A DNA stretch of 20,000 nt from an uncultured virus (IMG/VR IMGVR_UViG_3300022861_000081) (Duplodnaviria; Heunggongvirae; Uroviricota; Caudoviricetes). The stretch is taken from IMG/VR virus record IMGVR_UViG_3300022861_000081; one strand, given 5' to 3'. The translations under genes and the position numbers were made by a program. Below are positions 1,519-17,976 of the stretch, piece after piece; within the stretch, counting starts at the first letter, position 1; the number at the start of each line of letters is the position of its first letter. The notes beneath the pieces are model-generated. The model had not been told where the DNA came from and ran no database searches. It worked only from the letters and a program-made list of their open reading frames with translations.

Positions 1519-2563
1519 TTTCCTCTCCTTTTGTGATCTGTACCAGCACGGGATGTCTCACATAGCCGCAGATTTGGTAATATCCGCACCATTTTCGATC
1601 GCATCCCCACCAGCTTTGATTCGCCGGTACAAAGACGCCGGTTTTCATGGCGTGGATCAAATTGGCAAAGCGGTTTAAAAATACCTGCACGTCGTCTATA
1701 CTGCGTGTTGTGACCGTGGGCACGTATTTTAATGTCGGCTTTGCGGCATTCGTGCGGACCAGAAAATCCAACACCATTTTGTCGGGCAATTTCCCGTCCA
1801 CGACGTAGCTGGCAGTCGCGTACGCAGTCAACTGGTTGGAATCATCGGCCGTGCCCGCTTTATTGTTCCCGTCCATGTACGACGGAGTAGGCGATTTAGC
1901 GGATGTCTTTGTGTCACGGATGACGAGCAATTCTTTATCTCCGTCATGCACAATTTCCTGCACGTCCTGCTCACCCACGAAATCAACGCCTGTGCGGGCA
2001 GCGGCATTTAATGACCGCGCCTGTGCGTGCAGGATATTGGCCGCGTATTTGTCGGGCGTCGCTTCTGCCGAAGCGTGCAATTCTTTTGCCCGGGAGCGCA
2101 AAAAAGCGTCCATGTCCACGGAGAATTTACGGCGTGTGCGGACTGGCTGAATTTTCGGTGCCGCCTCGTCGTGGTGCAATCCGGACAAAGAAAGCGCTTT
2201 GTCCTTTGCCTCGCCCAATACCTGGTCCAGGCTTTTGCCGTCCTTTTTCTCGTCCTGGTCGAGTTCGATGGGTTCGTTTTTCTGCTCCTGCTCGAACTTG
2301 GCGGCCGAGATCGCGAGCACGTCGTCGCGCTTCAACAGCTCCCCTGTCTCGATCTTGTGGTCGAGATCCTGCGTCACCGATTCGTCTGTGGATTTGCCCA
2401 CCAGCAGAAATGCGTTCGGTGGCGACTTGATGCCGAGGATGTAGCGAAAAAGAAAGCGCTGGCCGCAATCTGCCGCCATATTCAGCGCAGAAACGTGAAT
2501 TTGACGACGCAATCTAGCTTTGCTTACGATTTTGTCAAGTGAGGGCACAGGGCTCTTTTCCAT
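1511..2563 (-). CDS. PD-(D/E)XK nuclease, Cas4/RecB-AddB-like with a probable 4Fe-4S cluster (likely the exonuclease partner of Bet)
   Basis: N-terminal SALN...C..RF..RYI, catalytic-type EQD...IRDTKTS and QLTAY, C-terminal CxxxxCxxxxxC; start placed at ATG 2563 (AAGGAG SD); overlaps the bet start. Confidence 0.8.
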   Translation of the reverse strand: MEKSPVPSLDKIVSKARLRRQIHVSALNMAADCGQRFLFRYILGIKSPPNAFLLVGKSTDESVTQDLDHKIETGELLKRDDVLAISAAKFEQEQKNEPIELDQDEKKDGKSLDQVLGEAKDKALSLSGLHHDEAAPKIQPVRTRRKFSVDMDAFLRSRAKELHASAEATPDKYAANILHAQARSLNAAARTGVDFVGEQDVQEIVHDGDKELLVIRDTKTSAKSPTPSYMDGNNKAGTADDSNQLTAYATASYVVDGKLPDKMVLDFLVRTNAAKPTLKYVPTVTTRSIDDVQVFLNRFANLIHAMKTGVFVPANQSWWGCDRKWCGYYQICGYVRHPVLVQITKGEENA

Positions 2564-3051
2564 GTGACTCCTTTCACGATGGTCCAAATGCAGAACTGAC
2601 TGACGCCGAACTGCTTGCCAATTTGTTTTTGTGAGGCAGATCCGCAAGAGTACATTTTCCGGATCGTTCCAACTTGTTCAAGCGTCAGCTTTGCATGGGG
2701 ATTGTTTTCTCCCCACGGTTTACGGTTCTTTGCAGCAGCATCCGCTTGGTTATCTAGGTCCGTTCCTAAAAACAGATGGCTTGGACGAACACAAAGAGTG
2801 TTGTCACAGCTATGACACACAAGTAATCTGTCAGGGATAGGACCAACAAACAACAGATACGCCAACCGATTTGCTTTGAAAACCTTACCGTTCCACCAAA
2901 TTTGTCCGTAGCGCGCCACTACGGTTCCTGTCCAGTTCCAACAGTTGCCAGTACGGTCAACATATTTCCAGAAATCCTGTGGTCGGCGCTTTCCATCAGG
3001 AATGTCAATTCGGCTGTTGCGGACTGCTTGAACAGCAGCGGCCATGTGCAT
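2524..3051 (-). CDS. HNH endonuclease (phage homing-type) with a C-terminal HTH-like DNA-binding segment
   Basis: CWNWTG...YGQI...ANRLAY...VCHSCDNTLCVRPSHLFLGT..DN..D, then GENNPHAKLT..QV..IR. Confidence 0.88.
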   Translation of the reverse strand: MHMAAAVQAVRNSRIDIPDGKRRPQDFWKYVDRTGNCWNWTGTVVARYGQIWWNGKVFKANRLAYLLFVGPIPDRLLVCHSCDNTLCVRPSHLFLGTDLDNQADAAAKNRKPWGENNPHAKLTLEQVGTIRKMYSCGSASQKQIGKQFGVSQFCIWTIVKGVTWKRALCPHLTKS

Positions 3052-3197: not shown

Positions 3198-3226
3198 TAG
3201 ACGCGCAGCGGAGTTTGCCTTATGCT
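3198..3226 (+). promoter_or_regulatory. sigma70-type promoter for a leaderless gene
   Basis: TAGACG-N17-TATGCT, ending 6 nt before ATG 3233. Confidence 0.55.
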
Positions 3227-3232
3227 GCGCGC

Positions 3233-3409
3233 ATGGAAAAGAAAACCAAGTTGACGAAAGCCGATCCAGATTTTTATAGAAAGATTGCCGCCATTGCCGG
3301 CAACAATTTGGTGCGCAAGAAGGGTACAGAATACTTTTCTAAGCTGGCGGCAAAAAGCCACCCACGCGATCATTATTTTGGCGGACGCCCCAAGAAGAAA
3401 GTGGCGTAA
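3233..3409 (+). CDS. Small basic protein, KGG/GsiB stress-repeat-like
   Basis: Two imperfect repeats, DFYRKIAAIAG and EYFSKLAAKS, resemble the 'EFY.EIG.KGG' repeat; promoter immediately upstream. Confidence 0.5.
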   Translation: MEKKTKLTKADPDFYRKIAAIAGNNLVRKKGTEYFSKLAAKSHPRDHYFGGRPKKKVA

Positions 3410-3465
3410 CCGATTCCTTTTTTTGCTGCCGTGCTCATGAGGCGCGAGGTTGTCGCGATTACCGG

Positions 3466-4747
3466 GTTGCATCTATTCGATGCACTAAAACCGCATTGCT
3501 ACGGTGGAATGTCCACTTCTTCGTCAGACGTATACAGTTGCATCTATCCGATGCACTAAAACTGCGTTGCTACAATAATCTCCCAATGGAGTGGGAACCC
3601 GACTATGTTGCACTTGTCCAGTGCACTAAAACTTCGTTGCTACTGTGCATGTTGACAAAAAAGGCAAACTTAAGTGGTTGCACTTGTCCAGTGCACTAAA
3701 ACTGCGTTGCTACGCCCAATGTCTCCGATGATGCTCTCTGGACGAACGGGTTGCACCTGTCCAGTGCACTAAAACTTCGTTGCTACGAGGTGCCGAGATG
3801 GGCAAAGACAACATTTATGTGGTTGCATCTATCCGATGCACTAAAACTTCGTTGCTGCGTAAAGCCGTGAAATTTACCTCGCATATCTGGATGTTGCACT
3901 TGTCCAGTGCACTAAAACTACGTTGCTACGCCGGGTCCAGCAGGAGCACGTTATCTGTGGGCGGTTGCACTTGTCCAGTGCACTGAAACTACGTTGCTAC
4001 GAGACACCCTGCACTTCATCGCAAAATTCGATGGGTTGCACTTATCCAGTGCACTAAAACTGCGTTGCTACGCGTAGTTTCATTCGAGGAGCGTACATTG
4101 TCATAGTTGCACTTGTCCAGTGCACTGAAACCGCGTTACTACTTCAGCGTGTTGCACTTGTCCAGTGCACTAAAACTGCATTACTGCGTGACAAAGCGTC
4201 AATAAAGCGCCGATTCCGAAGGTTGCACTTGTCCAGTGCACTCAAACTGCGTTGCTACAATGCCCCTCGGCTTGCCGTTTCGACGGCACTGGCGTTGCAC
4301 TTGTCCAGTGCACTAAAACCGCGTTACTACACTATCGGCCAAGAGATAAGGGCGACCCAAGCAAGTTGCACTTGTCCAGCGCACTAAAACCGCATTACTA
4401 CGAATCATTCATAAATTCATAGACTGCGATAAAGCGTTGCACTTGTCCAGTGCACTCAAACTGCGTTACTACTTTTGGACGAGATGGATGCAGCTGTAGG
4501 AGGAAACGTTGCACTTGTCCAGCGCACTTTAACTGCGTTGCTACTTGCTACAGTTCATACACTTGTGCGGAAGATTGGTGTTGCACTTATCCAGTGCACT
4601 TAAACCGCGTTGCTACTTGGTTCCGTATTTTTCAAGTGCGTTGCATCTACTCGATGCACTAAAACCACGTTGCTACCTGCGCTTAAGCTCGTTACAGGCT
4701 CTGAGTTTGTGTTGCATCTGCTCGATGCACTTTGACTACGCTGGTGC
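3466..4747 (-). CRISPR. CRISPR array 1: 19 repeats of 37 nt, 18 spacers
   Basis: + strand consensus GTTGCA(CT/TC)TRTCC(AG/GA)TGCACTAAAACYGCGTTRCTAC; repeats start at 3466, 3537, 3607, 3677, 3750, 3822, 3893, 3964, 4035, 4106, 4151, 4222, 4294, 4365, 4436, 4508, 4580, 4640, 4711; spacers are 33-36 nt except one of 8 nt and one of 23 nt; minus orientation inferred from G-U wobble pattern and promoter. Confidence 0.97.
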
Positions 4748-4767
4748 CTTTTCAGCACTATAAAAAC

Positions 4768-4776
4768 ATTATAGCA
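4768..4776 (-). promoter_or_regulatory. Extended -10 promoter (TGCTATAAT) driving array 1
   Basis: Perfect TGnTATAAT on the minus strand, about 20 nt upstream of the first (5'-degenerate) repeat and downstream of a GGGGCA-TTTT-TGCCCC hairpin that follows the cas stop. Confidence 0.7.
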
Positions 4777-4849
4777 TCCAAAAAATGCAAAATGCTTTGG
4801 GAGGGGGGGCAAAAATGCCCCTCCCCTGCCTCGATCTTGTTTGTTTTCA

Positions 4850-7162
4850 TCAAAGATCGTCTGTGCCGCTTTCGTCACCTTCCAGCGACTGCGTGTCTTC
4901 TTCTTCGTCTTCAAATCCCGGCGTCTGTGCGTCTTCTTCAGATTCGTCTTCATTTCCCAGCGCCAGCTTTGCCAGCTTGGGATCGCAGGCAAAGCGCGAC
5001 AGATTTACCGCAGCGTTGTAATCCTGGTCAATCAGCCTTCCACATGCTTCACACTGGAAGCGATCCTTTTCCGTCGATGGATTCAGATGATTGCAATATG
5101 AGCACATGCGCGTTGTGTTCATTGCCTCATACGGCTCAGTCACAATTCCGTATTTCACGGCAGTGTACTTGAGCAGAGAGATGAAGCGGCCAACAGCAGC
5201 AAATTGCCGGTATTTCTGCGAGCGCTTCAAGCTTACGGGATCGGTGTTCTCCTGGTGGACCGCAATTTTGGCCAGAAAGTTCTTTTCCAGGATCAACCGT
5301 GTAATGCTCTTTTTCTTCAGGTAGCTGCAAACATCATGGGCGACTTGCAGCTGGTTGTATTCAATACGCGCGCTGACTTTTTTGCTGTATGCGGCCGCAA
5401 GAGTCCCAATTTGTTCCTCGTTTTTTCCCCACGCATTCAGGATGCTCTGCACATCAACATCGTCTTTGAATTCCTCCTTGAGCCGCAGCAATCCACTACG
5501 ACCGGCTTTCTCCAGCCATGCAGGCGTGTTTTCCCCAAGTTGCTTGCGCAGCGCAATCTTGGCCGTATCTTTGAAGTAGTCACGGCGAGTCTGCAACGCG
5601 GTTCTGATCTCCAACGCGTTGGGGATTCCATCTCCCGGCTTCCAATCAGGGAATAGCCGCGTGATATTGCGTTTTTCCCAGCGTGTGGGTCCCATATCGA
5701 TGCGGAATGGCACACGATCTTTGTGATCTTTGGGCGATTTCTCAAAGTCCATCACAAGCTCGCGCACTGTCCAGCTCGTTGGCTCATACAGTGTGCCAAA
5801 CCGAATTCCCACTTCTGTACGCCGCCAGCCAATATCCAAACCGGCTGCAAGGGCAGTGGAAGTCGGTAGGTCACGTTGCAGCTCAACCACCAAGCAGAGC
5901 CAAAGTTTGCCATCCTGCAATAGAAGTTTCCACTCTTTTACGTGGGAGTTTGAGGGCAACGGTCGCCACTGAATGACCGCAAAACGAAAACGCCATTGCT
6001 GGTTATCGTCTCCACGAATGGAAATCTCCGCTTCTCGAAGCGTTTTGCCACCGCCTACCGTCTGGATTAACTCATGCCCCGTATTGGCAGGATCGAGTGG
6101 CGCTCCAAACGACAATCCCGGTACGCCTTCCTTGGACTCCAGCAATGAGGAACTGACGCCAGCCTTGTTGAAATAGTAATGCAGACCCCAATCGCCGGCC
6201 TTGGGGCTGTCGTTGTACTTGATGAGTGGCCAGCCCTCGGACCAAGTCAGCTTTTTGGTCCTGCGGCGATCGAGTGTTGCCTTGAAGGCGGTGATTGTCG
6301 GCCGAATTTCAAAGCTCCGTAGCTTGAGATCCTTTGCTTCCTTGTTGGCAATCGGTCCAAAATTCTTTACAAACTCGTCGAGCGCGGTGTAGTCCGTCTT
6401 GTGCTGCTGGGCAAAGGTAATCACCTTTTCCAGCAAACCTTCTGGCACGGGACGATCTTTGTCGACGCGCTTCCGCAGATCACCAACAAAATGCCACAAA
6501 CCATCTAGGCCGGGCATCTCGACCTTCAGCTTCGCTGGGTGCTTCATCTTGTCTTTGGAGCGACCGAGCGCGTCGTTAAAAGCATCGATCGCTGGCAAAA
6601 TAACGGTTTGGACAAAATCGGTAATCTCCTCGGGGGAACCAGAAGAGCATTGGCGCCGTGCTTCGCGGCAAAGCCAAGCCAGGCGGTTCCAGAGGTCCCT
6701 TTGTCGCGTGATCGATGCTTTGAGCCACTCAGGTACTTCGCCGCTCGTGTTCGTGCCTTCATGGGTAAAGTACGCACGGTATTTATAGATGGCATTTGAC
6801 CATCCATCTTCTGCCGAAAACTGACGCGGCGTTTTTGACATTCCGCCAATGTGGAAGATGGTCGGCTGCTTTTCGTCTACCAGCAGCACTCCAGATCGTT
6901 TCTGCGGACGCAGTTCGCCGTCAGGTGCCACCAGTTGAAAATTCATTGGTGTATCTGTCTTGAGATGAAGATCTGCGGGAATCGCCACTGCCGGCAACTG
7001 TGCAAACGTTGCCAGGCGCGTGCTCTCGTCAAACACGATGCGGCCATGCGTAAAAGCCTTGGTGGTCTTTAGTGACGTTTCTGCGGCGTGCACAAAGACG
7101 CAATCGTCTTTGTAGGTCAATTCTTTGATCATGCTTTTGATCCTTTCGGTGAACTGTTGCAT
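4850..7162 (-). CDS. cas12: Type V CRISPR effector, Cas12m (V-M / V-U1)-like TnpB-family RuvC protein, 770 aa
   Basis: RuvC-I AAGLDIGWRRTEVG preceded by QWRPLP...KLWLCLVV (resembles the Cas12m HRxLP...LCV...ALxLGWRxTExG block); RuvC-II LILE; Zn finger TTRMCSYC..NP...CEACG; RuvC-III DQDYNAAVNL; adjacent to the array. Confidence 0.85.
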   Translation of the reverse strand: MQQFTERIKSMIKELTYKDDCVFVHAAETSLKTTKAFTHGRIVFDESTRLATFAQLPAVAIPADLHLKTDTPMNFQLVAPDGELRPQKRSGVLLVDEKQPTIFHIGGMSKTPRQFSAEDGWSNAIYKYRAYFTHEGTNTSGEVPEWLKASITRQRDLWNRLAWLCREARRQCSSGSPEEITDFVQTVILPAIDAFNDALGRSKDKMKHPAKLKVEMPGLDGLWHFVGDLRKRVDKDRPVPEGLLEKVITFAQQHKTDYTALDEFVKNFGPIANKEAKDLKLRSFEIRPTITAFKATLDRRRTKKLTWSEGWPLIKYNDSPKAGDWGLHYYFNKAGVSSSLLESKEGVPGLSFGAPLDPANTGHELIQTVGGGKTLREAEISIRGDDNQQWRFRFAVIQWRPLPSNSHVKEWKLLLQDGKLWLCLVVELQRDLPTSTALAAGLDIGWRRTEVGIRFGTLYEPTSWTVRELVMDFEKSPKDHKDRVPFRIDMGPTRWEKRNITRLFPDWKPGDGIPNALEIRTALQTRRDYFKDTAKIALRKQLGENTPAWLEKAGRSGLLRLKEEFKDDVDVQSILNAWGKNEEQIGTLAAAYSKKVSARIEYNQLQVAHDVCSYLKKKSITRLILEKNFLAKIAVHQENTDPVSLKRSQKYRQFAAVGRFISLLKYTAVKYGIVTEPYEAMNTTRMCSYCNHLNPSTEKDRFQCEACGRLIDQDYNAAVNLSRFACDPKLAKLALGNEDESEEDAQTPGFEDEEEDTQSLEGDESGTDDL

Positions 7163-7175
7163 TTACCCAATGCAC

Positions 7176-7358
7176 TCAAACTTCTTCCTCTGCTGCTTTT
7201 TTCAGAGACTCGACATAATGCAGAAAAGCAGCAAGGACAGCGGGTTCTAGGTAAACTTGGTTGGTTTTGCGGATTCCATCCGATGCGTACAACTCGATCT
7301 GGTAGCCGTCAAAAGAAGCGTAAAGCCCATCGCCCAAGTAGACATCGTTTCCCTCCAT
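7176..7358 (-). CDS. Small phage hypothetical protein
   Basis: YLGDGLYASFDGYQIEL...NQVYLEP.VL motif is familiar from phage hypotheticals; ends 13 nt before the cas start, so it is probably co-transcribed; start uncertain. Confidence 0.6.
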   Translation of the reverse strand: MEGNDVYLGDGLYASFDGYQIELYASDGIRKTNQVYLEPAVLAAFLHYVESLKKAAEEEV

Positions 7359-7524
7359 GTCCAGCCTCATTTTTCGCGCCTTTTTTTCGATAGCACAGCC
7401 AGAAAAAAGAAGAGCAAAAGCCAAAAAGTACCTGGGTCAACCTTCACGCCAGACATGGCTTTTCTCCTCTGCTTGTCATGCGCGCAATTATATAAAAAAA
7501 CAGCGGTTGTGGAGCAAATTAAAT

Positions 7525-11090: not shown

Positions 11091-11636
11091 TCATCTTTCT
11101 GTCAGTTCGGCTACGATCATTTCTACCCAAAAAATCGCTTTTTTAACCCTTTTCTGTACGACGCTGATAGGCACATCTTCCAATGCCGCGATCTGCGCAT
11201 TCTTCAGGCCGTTGATGTGTCTAAGAACGAAATATATGCCGTACGGTGGGGGGATGCGATAGAGCACTGTTTCGAGATTCTTCTTTGCCCCCGCAGACAG
11301 CTTTGAACCGCTCCGTTTCACGGCCGCAGCACAAAGCGCCGCTTCATCCTTTTGCGCTTTTTCACACCAGGGGCCGTATTTGCGCCTCAACACGGTTCTT
11401 TCTTTTTCTTCCTGAACTTTCTCTGTTTGATCATGCTGAGACAGCCATGCCAGCACTTCGGCTTCATGCTTTTCGGCCGACAATCCCAATTCGTGAATCT
11501 TGGCAGAATCATTGTTGATCCGAAACAGGTCGTCGTCTACGGAAAGGCCGGTGTCATGATCGAACACCATCTGGGGATGAGCATATTCATGGAATATACC
11601 CTCGACAACCTCAGAAATATCCTCGTCGGTGCTCAT
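11091..11636 (-). CDS. Protein with C-terminal sigma70 region-4 (ECF-type) HTH
   Basis: L.RIPPPY..YFVLRHINGLKNAQIAALEDVPISVVQKRVKKA fits the sigma r4 pattern; no recognisable region 2. Confidence 0.65.
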   Translation of the reverse strand: MSTDEDISEVVEGIFHEYAHPQMVFDHDTGLSVDDDLFRINNDSAKIHELGLSAEKHEAEVLAWLSQHDQTEKVQEEKERTVLRRKYGPWCEKAQKDEAALCAAAVKRSGSKLSAGAKKNLETVLYRIPPPYGIYFVLRHINGLKNAQIAALEDVPISVVQKRVKKAIFWVEMIVAELTER

Positions 11637-12567: not shown

Positions 12568-12822
12568 TTAAGCGCTGCGTCGTTGCTCTTTCAGGTTGTT
12601 GATGTCCGCTTCGTGCCGCCCAAGAATCATATAGAACTGCGACAAATCGGCCTGCATTCGATCCAAACGGCCATCAATTGCAGTAAAACGGTTGTCCATT
12701 CGGGCATCCGTCGCGGTGAAACGATTGTCGATCGCACCGAACCGCGCATTGTTCAGGAAGATCCCCACCAGGACCAGCAACGAAGGAATACCGATGCTCA
12801 GGGCTAGCTGCAAGTTCGTCAT
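12568..12822 (-). CDS. Small membrane-anchored coiled-coil protein with heptad repeats
   Basis: MTNLQLALSIGIPSLLVLVGIFLN followed by ARFGAID-NRFTATD-ARMD-NRFTAID-GRLD; TATAAT 7 nt before ATG 12822. Confidence 0.7.
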   Translation of the reverse strand: MTNLQLALSIGIPSLLVLVGIFLNNARFGAIDNRFTATDARMDNRFTAIDGRLDRMQADLSQFYMILGRHEADINNLKEQRRSA

Positions 12823-13072
12823 GCCCGCAATTATACCCCGATTCTCTCCACAAGCTGGTGGGTGCATCATAAACAGCATAAAAAATCATTGCCGCCTGTA
12901 AAAAACTTTTTGTATTGAGTTGTCCAGGAAGAAGCAAAACGTGCAACAAATCGAACCATTTTTAATGATGGCGTTAGACGGCGCTGAATCGTGGATTCAT
13001 TCTGAAACACCTGCGGTTCAGGATAAGACACCGAGTGTCCAGAATAGGGCCTGTGGCCTAAAACGTTACAAG

Positions 13073-13099
13073 TAAAGGTGTTGCACGGCACACCGATGA
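13073..13099 (+). promoter_or_regulatory. sigma28 (FliA) promoter of the flagellin gene
   Basis: TAAA-N15-ACCGATGA versus the consensus TAAA-N15-GCCGATAA. Confidence 0.8.
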
Positions 13100-13151
13100 A
13101 GGGGGTGGATGCAGAAACAACAAATTTAAGCATCCCAAAGGAATTACCCAT

Positions 13152-14108
13152 ATGAGTTTGAGCGTACTCAACAACATCAATGCTTCCTACGCCGAGTCCA
13201 ACCTGAACAAAACCAGCAGCAGCCTGTCCACGGTGTTGCAGCAGTTGTCTTCGGGTTCGAAGATCAACTCTGGCGCCGATGATGCCGCCGGCCTCTCACT
13301 GGTCAACGGTCTGCAGGCCAACCAGGAAGCCCTAAGCCAGTCGACCACCAACGCGACCGAGGGCGTGGGTCTTCTGCAGGTCGCCGACGGCGCACTTTCG
13401 CAAGTCACAAGCCTGCTCAACCGTGCTGTTACGCTGGCCACCGAGGTCTCGAACGGCACCCTCAACACCACACAGGACGCGGCGGCCAACGAAGAATATC
13501 AGTCGATTTTGTCGGAAGTTTCGAGCATCGGTTCGACGACCACCTACAACCAACAGCAGGTCTTTGGCAACACTTTTGCCATCTACACCGGCGACTCCAC
13601 CACGCAGGGTTCTTCGGTTGATGTTCTGTCCATCTCCGGGCTCAATGCTACGACAGGAACGGTTGGAGACGCGGGCGGCACACTCACCTACAAGACAGGC
13701 ACGGCTGATTCGACTACGGGTACTTCGATTACTTACGGCACGGCTGCTTCCATCTCCTATACGGCCAATGCCGGTATTTCACTTGGTGCAACCTCGCTTA
13801 GCGGCACAACTACTGCTGATGCACAGAAGGCTGCACAGATTGCTCTGACTAGCTTGAACACAGCCATTTCCGATGTGTCTTCACAGGACGGCTACATTGG
13901 TGCCCAGATCAACACTCTGAATGCCATCAGTACGGTCGAATCCTCGCAGCAGGAGAACATTCAGTCCGCGCAGAATGCCGTGCAGGCCACCGACTACGCG
14001 ACGGCTTCCTCCAACCTGTCCAAGTACGAGATCCTTAGTCAGACCGGCATCTCGGCTCTTTCCCAGGCCAACAGCGTCCAGCAGGAAGTCACCAAGCTGT
14101 TGCAGTAA
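13152..14108 (+). CDS. fliC: Flagellin
   Basis: N-terminal QLSSGSKINSGADDAAGL...NATEGVGLLQVADGALSQVTSLLNR; C-terminal IGAQINTL...ATDYA...LSKYEILSQTGISALSQAN...V.KLLQ; short Thr/Gly-rich variable domain. Confidence 0.97.
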   Translation: MSLSVLNNINASYAESNLNKTSSSLSTVLQQLSSGSKINSGADDAAGLSLVNGLQANQEALSQSTTNATEGVGLLQVADGALSQVTSLLNRAVTLATEVSNGTLNTTQDAAANEEYQSILSEVSSIGSTTTYNQQQVFGNTFAIYTGDSTTQGSSVDVLSISGLNATTGTVGDAGGTLTYKTGTADSTTGTSITYGTAASISYTANAGISLGATSLSGTTTADAQKAAQIALTSLNTAISDVSSQDGYIGAQINTLNAISTVESSQQENIQSAQNAVQATDYATASSNLSKYEILSQTGISALSQANSVQQEVTKLLQ

Positions 14109-14148
14109 TCAGCGGGTTTCATCACTTTGTATCAAAACACTCAGGGAC

Positions 14149-14183
14149 GGCGGCAAAGGAAATCTACTTTGCCGCCTTTTTTT
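14149..14183 (+). terminator. Rho-independent terminator after flagellin
   Basis: GGCGGCAAAG-N8-CTTTGCCGCC followed by T7. Confidence 0.85.
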
Positions 14184-14256
14184 ATTCAAAAGATTTAACT
14201 TTGGGGTCTGTTGGATGGCATTGACCTTGCTTATTCCTTCTTGGAGGAAAGATGAC

Positions 14257-15012
14257 ATGGAAGCATACCAGCAGAGCTATCCGATTCACGTGATAAATCT
14301 TCAACGTTCTGTAGAAAGGAAAAAATCGTTTGTAAAAAACAATCAGCACTTAAAATACAATTTCTTCCCCGCCTTTGATGGGAAAACATTGGGGGCATCA
14401 CTGCTGAACAGCGATAAGCTGTTTCTCCATCCACTTCCCTTCCCCAGTCTTGGTGCCTTTGGTTGTGCGTTGTCGCATTTCACATTGTGGAAATTGGCTA
14501 TGCAGAATAACTTAGCTATCACAATTGCCGAGGATGACGCGATTTTCCGGGATGACTTTGTGACAGCTTCGGCCAATCTGATTGAGTCGCTGCCCAAAGA
14601 CTGGGACATGGTCTATTGGGGATGGAATCTGGATGCGCCCTTGGTTGTTAGCATAATGGGGAATGCTGCGTCTGCCCTCTTGTCCTTTGACCAAAATGCA
14701 ATCGTCAAAAAGATTGACGCGTTTCGGATCTCAAAAGAACCGGCGACAGCACTAAAACTGAGCAAGTGCTTTGGCATACCTGCCTATACGATTTCTCCAC
14801 AAGGGGCAAAAAAGTTTATTGAACAGTGTTTCCCAATTAAAAATACGTATGTCGTATTTCCATTGCTGAACAAATATTTTTCTATGACGGGAGTCGATAT
14901 GGCCATGAATCTTATTCTTTCAGACACACAAAGTTATGTTGCTTTCCCTCCGTTAGTTGTGACCCCGAATGATCACGGTATCAGTACGATCCAACGCCCT
15001 GATTCTTTGTGA
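14257..15012 (+). CDS. Glycosyltransferase family 25
   Basis: IHVINLQRSVERK, FPAFDGK, GAFGCALSH..LW, IAEDDAIF, AYTISPQGAKK; GGAGG SD before ATG 14257 (the longer ORF-track start overlaps fliC and was discarded). Confidence 0.9.
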   Translation: MEAYQQSYPIHVINLQRSVERKKSFVKNNQHLKYNFFPAFDGKTLGASLLNSDKLFLHPLPFPSLGAFGCALSHFTLWKLAMQNNLAITIAEDDAIFRDDFVTASANLIESLPKDWDMVYWGWNLDAPLVVSIMGNAASALLSFDQNAIVKKIDAFRISKEPATALKLSKCFGIPAYTISPQGAKKFIEQCFPIKNTYVVFPLLNKYFSMTGVDMAMNLILSDTQSYVAFPPLVVTPNDHGISTIQRPDSL

Positions 15013-17093: not shown

Positions 17094-17169
17094 TCGCGGG
17101 GGCAGGATTCGAACCTGCGATCTCTGGATTATGACCCCAGCGAACACAACCGGACTGTTCCGCCCCGCG
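17094..17169 (-). tRNA. tRNA-Met(CAT), initiator-like body, no encoded CCA
   Basis: CGCGGGG/CCCCGCG-A; CTGGG GTCATAA TCCAG; GCAGG TTCGAAT CCTGC; TGCTATAAT at 17175-17183 just upstream. Confidence 0.88.
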
Positions 17170-17397: not shown

Positions 17398-17435
17398 CCA
17401 GTCTTCTCCTCGGTACTGATTGTTTCGTCCTCGGT

Positions 17436-17887
17436 GTTGCATTTCTTCAATGCACTTCAACTTCGGTGGAACAAACAAAAGAGAATGCTTATCAAGGTTG
17501 CATCTATGCGACGCACTTCAACTGCTTTGCTACGTATCGTATTTAAAAGAAAAATCCCCTTGTCCATAGTTGCATCTATCCGATGCACTTCAACTGCGAG
17601 CTACTTGGGTCCAGCGTAAAAAGCACTGACATTGTTCAGTTGCATTTGTTCAATGCACTTTGACTGCTTTGCCGTAAAACGAGGCAAATATTCAATGGCT
17701 GTATGGTTGCATCTGCTCGATGCACTTCAACTGCCTTGCTACTCCAAAAGCTGGCATTATGAATCTGAGTGTTCTGTTGCATCTGCTCGATGCACTTCAA
17801 CTGCCTTACAGCGAATAGTTTAACCGATTTAGCGCAATATTGCTATTCAAGTTGCATCTATTCAATGCACTTCGACTGTGATAATTT
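17436..17887 (-). CRISPR. CRISPR array 2: 7 degenerate repeats of the same family, 6 spacers
   Basis: Repeats GTTGCATYT....RATGCACTTYRACTGC.TTGCTAC start at 17436, 17497, 17569, 17639, 17706, 17776, 17851; period 61-75 nt. Confidence 0.92.
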
Positions 17888-17888
17888 T

Positions 17889-17976
17889 TGGCGGAAGCGG
17901 TAGGATTTGAACCCACGAAGCCTTTCGGCCTAGCGGTTTTCTGGACCGCCGGCATAAACCACTCGCCCACGCTTCC
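17889..17976 (-). tRNA. tRNA-Ser(AGA) with C33
   Basis: GGAAGCG/CGCTTCC G CCA; long variable arm AGGCC GAAA GGCTT; anticodon arm GCGGT CCAGAAA ACCGC. Confidence 0.88.

Follow-up and report, generated by a model that had tools for sequence, protein, structure and literature searches.

All-distinct CRISPR repeats keep a compensatory RNA hairpin in a virus-borne locus with a Cas12-like effector

CasPhi (Cas12j) and CasLambda are type V CRISPR systems of viral loci that consist of a single effector, do without a trans-activating CRISPR RNA (tracrRNA) and often lack cas1 and cas2. Structured families of CRISPR repeats with compensatory base pairs were reportedly recognized by Kunin and colleagues in 2007. 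Parts of the CRISPRmap paper describe repeat hairpin motifs that are kept by compensatory changes and the use of G·U pairs to choose the strand, and orienting repeats by G·U pairs is hence an established idea (PMC3783184). A review describes CRISPR systems of jumbo phages without adaptation modules as well as Cas12m (type V-M), which is carried on mobile elements and whose RuvC domain is described as inactivated (PMC11656645). We analyzed a stretch of 20,000 nucleotides (nt) from the uncultured Caudoviricetes record IMGVR_UViG_3300022861_000081 of IMG/VR, hereafter the window, which carries two CRISPR-like arrays and, beside the first of them, the gene of a Cas12-like effector that likewise resides on a mobile element. 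CRISPRmap-type families compare consensus repeats across arrays or organisms, whereas here the variants and their G·U intermediates occur within one array. They stand side by side in a single array whose 19 repeats all differ. Full-text literature searches turned up no paper on compensatory variation of repeats inside one array, nor any on the family of this effector.

Repeat finding and direct extraction yielded 27 repeat units of 37 nt in the window, all distinct in the minus-strand alignment. Array 1 (3466..4747, minus strand) comprises 19 repeats, all different, and 18 spacers; array 2 (17436..17887, minus strand) comprises 7 units, no two of them alike, whose 5' halves have diverged strongly and whose hairpins are intact; and a solo unit ending in TGCATT GGGTA AATGCA AC lies at 7156..7192 on the same strand. 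The initial annotation of this DNA had counted 26 repeats; its unit starts were recovered and the number is 27, the solo unit at 7156 having been used without being counted. In RNA sense the consensus repeat of array 1 reads GTAGCAACGCAGTTTTAG-TGCACT-GGACA-AGTGCA-AC. The repeat period of 70-73 nt and spacers of mostly 33-36 nt match the dimensions of CRISPR arrays (repeats of ~23-47 nt). Near-identity of the repeats within an array was not found, as 19 of 19 are distinct in array 1. Pairwise identity of the repeats averages 0.84 in array 1 and 0.74 in array 2. We infer a CRISPR-like function of array 1 despite its non-identical repeats. An E-value-mode Rfam scan of the whole window gave no CRISPR-DR match, only tRNAs and two weak unrelated matches. 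Sixteen of the array 1 spacers measure 33-36 nt, one measures 23 nt (4617-4639) and one 8 nt (4143-4150, between units 4106 and 4151), and array 2 has a shortened spacer of 24 nt. The 8-nt and 23-nt spacers are flanked by intact repeats, recur in the related 55-kb IMG/VR viral contig G001 and are scars of repeat-to-repeat deletion. All 19 array 1 units are present in G001, and we rejected an assembly artefact or chimerism because independent assemblies (G001 and contigs from RNA libraries) agree with the array.

The units were scored against a structure of 18 unpaired positions, 6 pairs, 5 unpaired positions, 6 pairs and 2 unpaired positions. On the minus strand all 162 stem cells of the 27 units are paired, five of them as G·U. 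When the 3' letters were shuffled within their columns the paired fraction was 92.5% ± 1.1 and none of 500 shuffles reached 100%, and sliding the stem partners by 1-3 columns left 18.5-50.6% of the cells paired. RNAalifold applied to the window units returned the identical hairpin of 6 base pairs (bp) and a 5-nt loop. The proposal that heterogeneous repeats preserve this stem-loop thus holds for all 27 distinct units. Two of the six stem pairs vary on both sides, which affects 22 cells: at pair 23:31, 14 units have C-G and 13 have U-A, and at pair 24:30, 16 units have U-A, 9 have C-G and 2 have U·G. Pair 22:32 is A-U in 24 units and G·U in 3. The units are related copies, for which a column shuffle overstates independence, and few independent compensatory events suffice to explain the window data taken alone. 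The three stem variants named in the initial annotation occur where it had placed them and at additional sites, namely TGCATC/GATGCA at 3466, 3537, 3822, 4640 and 4711 plus 17569, 17706 and 17776, TGCACT/AGTGCA in most array 1 units, and TGCATT/AATGCA at 17436 and 17639 plus 7156.

On the plus strand 157 of 162 stem cells pair and the five G·U cells turn into A·C. As had been claimed, every clash in the imperfect plus-strand units (3750, 4365, 4508, 17497 and 17851) is A-C or C-A and becomes G·U on the minus strand. These five wobble units adopt the canonical hairpin at minimum free energy on the minus strand only; on the plus strand the stem becomes shorter, is interrupted or gives way to another structure. 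Folding energies computed for individual array units were no better than those of shuffled sequences (z -0.1 to -1.6), and the evidence for the structure is therefore comparative rather than thermodynamic.

To this set we added the repeats of relatives, using a profile built from the window repeats over 75 sequences from 84 loci and eight further array regions. After 13 units with fewer than four Watson-Crick pairs in register and two L089 matches lying inside spacers had been dropped, 380 non-redundant units remained. Their stems contain 2206 Watson-Crick, 58 G·U, 11 A·C and 5 other cells, and the ratio of G·U to A·C of 58:11 has a binomial p of 7.6e-9. The paired fraction is 0.991 on the sense strand, 0.966 on the antisense strand and 0.931 ± 0.0025 in shuffles (n = 1000). 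Four of the six stem pairs vary on both sides across the family, and every step of the path ATC/GAT, ATC/GGT, ACC/GGT, ACT/GGT, ACT/AGT was found, each intermediate being a G·U pair in the sense strand.

The effector gene lies on the minus strand, and in relatives cas4-cas1-cas2 and the arrays are co-oriented with it in the same manner. This co-orientation, the G·U excess and the canonical folding of the wobble units on the minus strand alone support the minus strand as the RNA strand, as the initial annotation had proposed, and would place the hairpin at the 3' end of the repeat with AAC directly 5' of the spacer. In the intergenic leader that separates the effector stop codon from the first repeat (4748..4849, minus strand), a GC-rich terminator-like hairpin is followed by TGCTATAAT (plus-strand coordinates 4768-4776), a putative extended -10-like element that precedes the first repeat by ~20 nt in minus-strand sense. 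This box is kept in L021 and partly in L002. A simple two-hexamer sigma-70 scan of 3200-7500 returned no promoter, the TGCTATAAT box included.

The information content of 294 distinct repeats is ~1.1-2.0 bits at positions 17-25 and 29-37, 0.3-0.7 bits at loop positions 26-28 and 0.01-1.2 bits at positions 1-16. The conserved unit is AG plus stem plus AC, ~21 nt in all, and this profile therefore marks the handle of AG, stem and AC as the unit under selection. A handle of this size is what a Cas12a-style guide would need. With Cas12a (type V-A) guides the window repeats share the hairpin at the repeat 3' end before the spacer, conservation of only the last ~21 nt, the lack of a detected anti-repeat and the position of the array downstream of the effector gene on the same strand; a stem of 6 bp and a loop of 5 nt set them apart. 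All 20 matches to the repeat 5' half (window only, up to 3 mismatches of 18) are on the plus strand and fall inside the arrays, and hence no anti-repeat was seen in the window. A hairpin at the repeat 3' end combined with no anti-repeat RNA, the hallmark of a Cas12a-like tracrRNA-free guide, was thus observed. Unlike Cas12a, the window effector has ~760 amino acids (aa) and no detectable Cas12a sequence match, its best matches being Cas12m and Cas12f.

Genes for cas4, cas1 and cas2, detected by tblastn and confirmed by Pfam, occur in four of the 75 sequences, which represent three distinct loci (L017 = L031, L019 and L051). The arrays that follow cas2 in these loci are nearly uniform, with 1 of 11, 1 of 22 and 5 of 15 repeats distinct; in the last of these, divergent repeats and even another stem variant stand at the far end. 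In the otherwise uniform cas1-linked array of L019, the far-end and thus oldest units (11299-11480) carry ATC/GAT instead of ACC/GGT, and the template repeat itself has switched stem variant over time. All other arrays with at least five units (24/24) contain 56-100% distinct repeats, among them the distal arrays of G004 and G006, two viral records that bear cas1, and the arrays of G005, which is judged 99% complete, carries no Cas1 and has 15-16 distinct repeats of 17-18. We did not find cas1 in the window or in G001 (judged 64% complete). Uniform repeats therefore go with an adjacent adaptation module, and the suggestion that the window repeats are not homogenized is borne out. The simplest reading is that repeats stay identical where the leader-proximal repeat is duplicated upon spacer addition and drift elsewhere, with the handle alone under selection. 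A similar divergence of repeats far from the acquisition site is seen in degenerate terminal repeats and orphan arrays, as at the trailer end of L019, where it extends to the stem variant. The window differs from these in that every unit diverges, the RNA handle is respected and an intact effector gene adjoins.

We consider it about 70% probable that the window holds a virus-borne type V locus without tracrRNA, in which repeats drift in the absence of adaptation genes, the handle is kept and units are shuffled. Such a locus would comprise a Cas12-like effector, an array directly downstream on the same strand, a second array within a cluster of tRNA genes and, in the 5' untranslated region that precedes the effector, a solo repeat. 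The minus-strand repeat would supply a ~21-nt handle (AG, 6-bp stem, 5-nt loop, AC) directly 5' of the spacer. Without cas4-cas1-cas2 the repeats would not be re-copied from one template at spacer addition and would for this reason drift apart, while purifying selection at the RNA level would hold only the handle, such that changes in the stem would survive solely as compensatory pairs or G·U intermediates. Hairpin-plus-spacer units would be shuffled, gained and lost by recombination between repeats, among the arrays that a single genome carries and across related genomes rather than by chronological addition at the leader, giving rise to interleaved variants and a mosaic unit order. The data show the repeat sequences, the strand bias and the association of uniform repeats with a neighboring adaptation module; the transcription start, guide processing, effector binding and the mechanism of recombination we infer.

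Comparison with relatives bears on the turnover of units. G001 is 99.8% identical to the window over 11.7 kb including the effector gene and array 1, and the window is also matched by a 90-kb metagenome contig; the element is best described as a virus or virus-like element, and relatives are binned with genomes of Acidobacteria (Terracidiphilus). Array 1 is the same in the window and G001, array 2 has 7 units versus 3, and a 2-kb difference lies beside it. Four more distant relatives (L021, L022, L046 and L063) have effector regions that match that of the window at 91.5-92.1% identity, and among themselves they reach 98.3-99.4%. Two of the 18 array 1 spacers (S02 and S03) recur in them, each behind an ACT/AGT hairpin as in the window. 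These contigs have their first four and their last units in common and differ in the interior, and any two of them share 4-9 of 9-18 units. Since relatives of 98.3-99.4% identity differ in about half of their units, array turnover is fast relative to point substitution, and it is not polarized to the effector-proximal end. The initial annotation had read the guides as long-lived and named rapid, polarized turnover among the findings that would speak against it; the turnover is indeed rapid, and it is unpolarized.

Unit order and site patterns of array 1 point to recombination, in agreement with the earlier suggestion that the interleaved variants had recombined. Of 105 informative site pairs, 62 have all four possible combinations of alleles, and the relatives differ from one another by a mosaic order of units. 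Stem sites 23, 24, 30 and 31 form six pairs, and in none of these do all four combinations occur; 5' halves, loops and stems are reshuffled while the stem arms stay coupled. A shortened 18-nt spacer and the unit that follows it are shared by one of the distal arrays of G001 and the array that adjoins the effector gene of L021. Moreover, an identical 33-nt spacer occurs in L002 (1718-1750) and L021 (3876-3908), where it is flanked in each case by the repeats of its own lineage (repeat identity 0.68), the effectors of L002 and L021 being ~63% and ~94% identical to that of the window. This spacer could reflect independent acquisition from one target, exchange or strong selection. Two neighboring units of L002 (1753-1888) carry the same spacer with one mismatch, a tandem repeat-spacer duplication.

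We searched for targets of the spacers and for transcripts of the locus. Comparison of 396 family spacers with all fetched loci, arrays masked, gave a sole match to one unmasked array copy. Array 1 had no match in the GenBank phage collection (distant mode) or in five Acidobacteria metagenome-assembled genomes and gave repeat-to-repeat matches only with five related viral records, and exact IMG/VR scans with S03 and the 33-nt spacer of L002 and L021 returned only the arrays themselves. Six matches of array 1 among 301 genomes of that Acidobacteria family (E 0.002-0.01 per genome) are about what chance would give and were not used. Three RNA libraries hold contigs that agree at 100% identity with stretches of the array and of the effector gene. 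Those at 3447-3756, 4356-4501 and 4558-4774 show no difference to the window, and the first spans two ATC-type and two ACT-type units. These matches are a hint of expression of the array and the effector.

Several observations weigh against drift without adaptation genes and shuffling of units. Eleven stem cells of the family are A·C on the sense strand, for instance at L046:1512 and at L002:2106, the last unit of an array upstream of the effector gene, and the profile and regular expressions were seeded on sense-strand sequences, which brings a slight bias to known variants. The absence of cas1 from the element refers to the window and to the 64%-complete G001, and the link between repeat uniformity and the adaptation module to three cas1-bearing loci. 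All four allele combinations can also arise from recurrent transitions, and transitions outnumber transversions by 59 to 11. None of the searches, which were narrow, found a spacer target, and the RNA-library contigs carry no strand, start or end and may derive from DNA carry-over. Finally, L021 carries blocks of near-identical repeats that resemble recent duplicative acquisition, and these blocks together with the spacer common to L002 and L021 suggest that Cas1-type adaptation may act in trans.

This last possibility can be put as an explanation in its own right: a cas4-cas1-cas2 module of this family, carried by the host or by a co-infecting relative, would still insert spacers and, for want of a proper leader, would do so at internal repeats. 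The heterogeneity would then stem from insertion beside repeats that had diverged before, with mutation thereafter. It is in keeping with the occurrence of cas4-cas1-cas2 together with the same effector family and repeat type in three loci, with spacer lengths held tightly at 33-36 nt and with the variable interior of L021, L022, L046 and L063, which holds their most uniform repeats; the identical 33-nt spacer within lineage-specific repeats fits independent acquisition from one target. However, no two array 1 repeats of the window are identical, which leaves no sign of recent duplication, the near-complete genome without cas1 still has 15-16 distinct repeats of 17-18, and the helper is hypothetical. 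We regard adaptation in trans as unlikely.

The turnover among relatives bears on a different view, which builds on the initial annotation and according to which the guides are fixed and long-lived, with little turnover, and each is kept by selection, for example for a regulatory or anti-defense role. Array 1 is identical in the window and G001, S02 and S03 persist with unchanged stem variant across lineages that are 92% identical in their flanks, one 33-nt spacer is identical where effectors are only ~63% identical, and hairpins are conserved. Yet the locus as a whole is 99.8% identical between the window and G001, which makes their identical array uninformative, 16 of the 18 array 1 spacers have no counterpart in the four relatives at 92% identity, and the relatives at 98.3-99.4% identity share only 4-9 of 9-18 units. 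Selection acting on each guide finds no support either, as units with 8-, 18- and 23-nt spacers persist and the unit with the 8-nt spacer keeps a perfect hairpin. Long-lived guides in place of fast turnover are thus improbable.

The open reading frame (ORF) of the Cas12-like effector (4850..7162, minus strand, 770 aa as listed) has a C-terminal RuvC domain and a zinc ribbon and reads towards array 1, which begins ~100 nt past its stop codon. A single effector with a RuvC-like nuclease domain next to an array is the arrangement of type V systems. Alignments with relatives begin at residue 9-11, which makes M11 at 7132 the probable true start and leaves a protein of 760 aa. Pfam returned only Cas12f1-like_TNB (3e-13), the NCBIfam matches to TnpB and Cas12f2 were both below threshold, and PADLOC models of Cas12f and Cas12u1 matched at ~6e-23 over residues 384-723 only. 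Sequence matches in the PDB were confined to the C-terminal ~110 residues, with Cas12m chains as the best (1e-7). A homology search retrieved 111 related clusters, of which none bears a CRISPR name; many reside on contigs of 50-480 kb. The E/D-rich tail of the effector (residues ~737-770; 4850-4950, minus strand) is of low confidence and absent from the family consensus.

An AlphaFold model from 33 family members has a mean predicted local distance difference test score of 81.9. Foldseek placed it closest to Cas12m2 and Cas12m (E 2e-20 to 1e-17, target-normalized template modeling score (TM) 0.53-0.60, ~14% identity), in alignments of ~650-700 columns that rank above Cas12f, CasLambda, Cas12o, Cas12g and others. 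CasLambda lies far lower in the search (TM ~0.26-0.30), and CasPhi structures were not among the chains listed. The fold of Cas12m is thus shared in the model; there is neither a subtype assignment by NCBIfam or Pfam nor full-length homology to Cas12m. Unlike Cas12m, the window effector is ~170 aa longer and is not assigned by any curated model, its family keeps the acidic triad, and some relatives carry cas4-cas1-cas2. The triad residue D443 is D in 25 and E in 8 of the 33 family members, E626 is present in 33/33 and D714 in 32/33, and the four zinc-ribbon cysteines are retained in 32/33. Conservation of the triad argues against simple RuvC inactivation. Judged by its predicted structure, the effector belongs to an unnamed type V family whose fold is closest to Cas12m and which is not a Cas12m. 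Cas-delta, described as proteins of 867-936 aa, was set aside as its identity.

The genes just downstream of array 1 (439-1518, 1511-2647 and 2524-3051, all on the minus strand) encode a RecT-family annealing protein, a PD-(D/E)XK nuclease and an HNH endonuclease, a recombination module that could drive the mosaicism of the arrays. Its presence also bears on the idea that repeat diversity is itself selected, because dissimilar repeats of the same fold would resist deletion by phage single-strand-annealing recombination. The RecT-family protein and the PD-(D/E)XK nuclease are encoded beside array 1, the shortened spacers show that repeat-to-repeat deletions happen, and 5' halves and loops are most variable; however, uniform arrays of 11-22 units persist in relatives and neutral drift outside the handle would produce the same diversity, and we consider this idea quite doubtful. 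That the arrays are decaying, non-functional remnants is highly improbable: no adaptation genes and no targets were found, the repeats are diverged and some spacers are shortened, but the hairpin and the flanking AG and AC are almost invariant while the rest of the repeat drifts, the G·U excess is strand-specific, the effector ORF is intact, its acidic triad is conserved and its family comprises ~110 clusters, and matching contigs are present in RNA libraries.

Retention of the handle extends to the solo repeat, which lies between the stop codon of a small ORF and the ribosome-binding site of the effector gene, its hairpin ending 23 nt before the ATG. The listed effector ATG at 7162 falls within this repeat. 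Of 45 distinct sequences upstream of the effector gene in relatives, 13 likewise place a hairpin in its 5' untranslated region, including L021:488, L045:1085, L069:1546, L026:5955, L038:2815, L044, L051:5942, L055, L056:5966, L039:232, L073:993 and L002:2106. The solo hairpins end ~15-23 nt before the ATG (42 nt in L002), have a ribosome-binding site in the place of the spacer and show compensatory and G·U stem variants. They could be autoregulatory sites, at which the effector binds or cuts its own mRNA, or remnants of an upstream array as in L002. The ATG in the 3' arm of the repeat (..ATGCAAC) was taken as a start by ORF finders at 7162 and at 3472 (minus strand), that is for the effector and for the ORF after array 1, and gene callers tend to extend genes into repeats. 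The small ORF (phrog_11545; 7176..7424, minus strand, 82 aa as listed) also stands directly upstream of the effector gene in L021, L045, L015, L051, L002, L069 and L055, and may be an accessory gene of the system.

Array 2 sits between tRNA-Met (17094-17169) and tRNA-Ser (17889-17976) on the same strand as both; all eight tRNA genes of the window are on the minus strand. Its first unit begins one base past the 3' end of tRNA-Ser, and since the array abuts tRNA-Ser within this same-strand cluster it may be co-transcribed with the tRNAs. The first repeat of array 2 lacks its 5' half. Terminal and solo hairpins are frequently followed by the sequence ACCGAGGA(C/T)GAAGC and then a start codon, as in the window at 17398-17435 (minus strand) and in L056:13932, L026:5955, L038:2815 and L002:6301. 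In some genomes this module stands before the effector gene, in others before small ORFs that are unrelated and lie where an array ends; the ORF behind it in L056 encodes a 64-aa protein with CxxC motifs. Relatives (G001, G003-G006) are elements of 55-130 kb with four or five dispersed arrays per genome, and G001 carries at least 54 repeat units (~2316-2485, 10260, 12705-13987, 35987-36729 and 40014-41390), a very large guide load. Other genes of the window include a sigma-factor-like protein as well as a flagellin with Flagellin_N and Flagellin_C domains (13152-14108, plus strand) followed by a family-25 glycosyltransferase (13921-15012, plus strand), an unusual viral cargo.

A wider and more tentative proposal, which we would not bet on as it stands, is that these Acidobacteria-associated viruses run an adaptation-free form of CRISPR. 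Instead of a chronological memory, the guides would form a library of shuffled, self-contained hairpin-plus-spacer modules that recombination exchanges among the four or five arrays of a genome and with co-infecting relatives, and selection at the RNA level would act on their loadability. Through a hairpin 15-23 nt before the effector ATG, which at array ends also precedes other genes, the effector could gauge how many guides it carries and in response repress or cleave the mRNA that encodes it.

Within one effector family, the locus and its relatives provide a natural experiment on what keeps CRISPR repeats identical: arrays adjacent to cas4-cas1-cas2 are uniform, whereas others, even in the same genome, diverge everywhere except in the handle. 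This comparison defines the minimal RNA that the effector must recognize and offers a ready set of tolerated handle variants, including G·U intermediates. Arrays can also turn over quickly without leader-polarized acquisition. The effector family is compact (~730-780 aa), uncharacterized and apparently tracrRNA-free, and its naturally non-repetitive arrays have practical appeal, since engineered multiplex arrays suffer from the instability of identical repeats.

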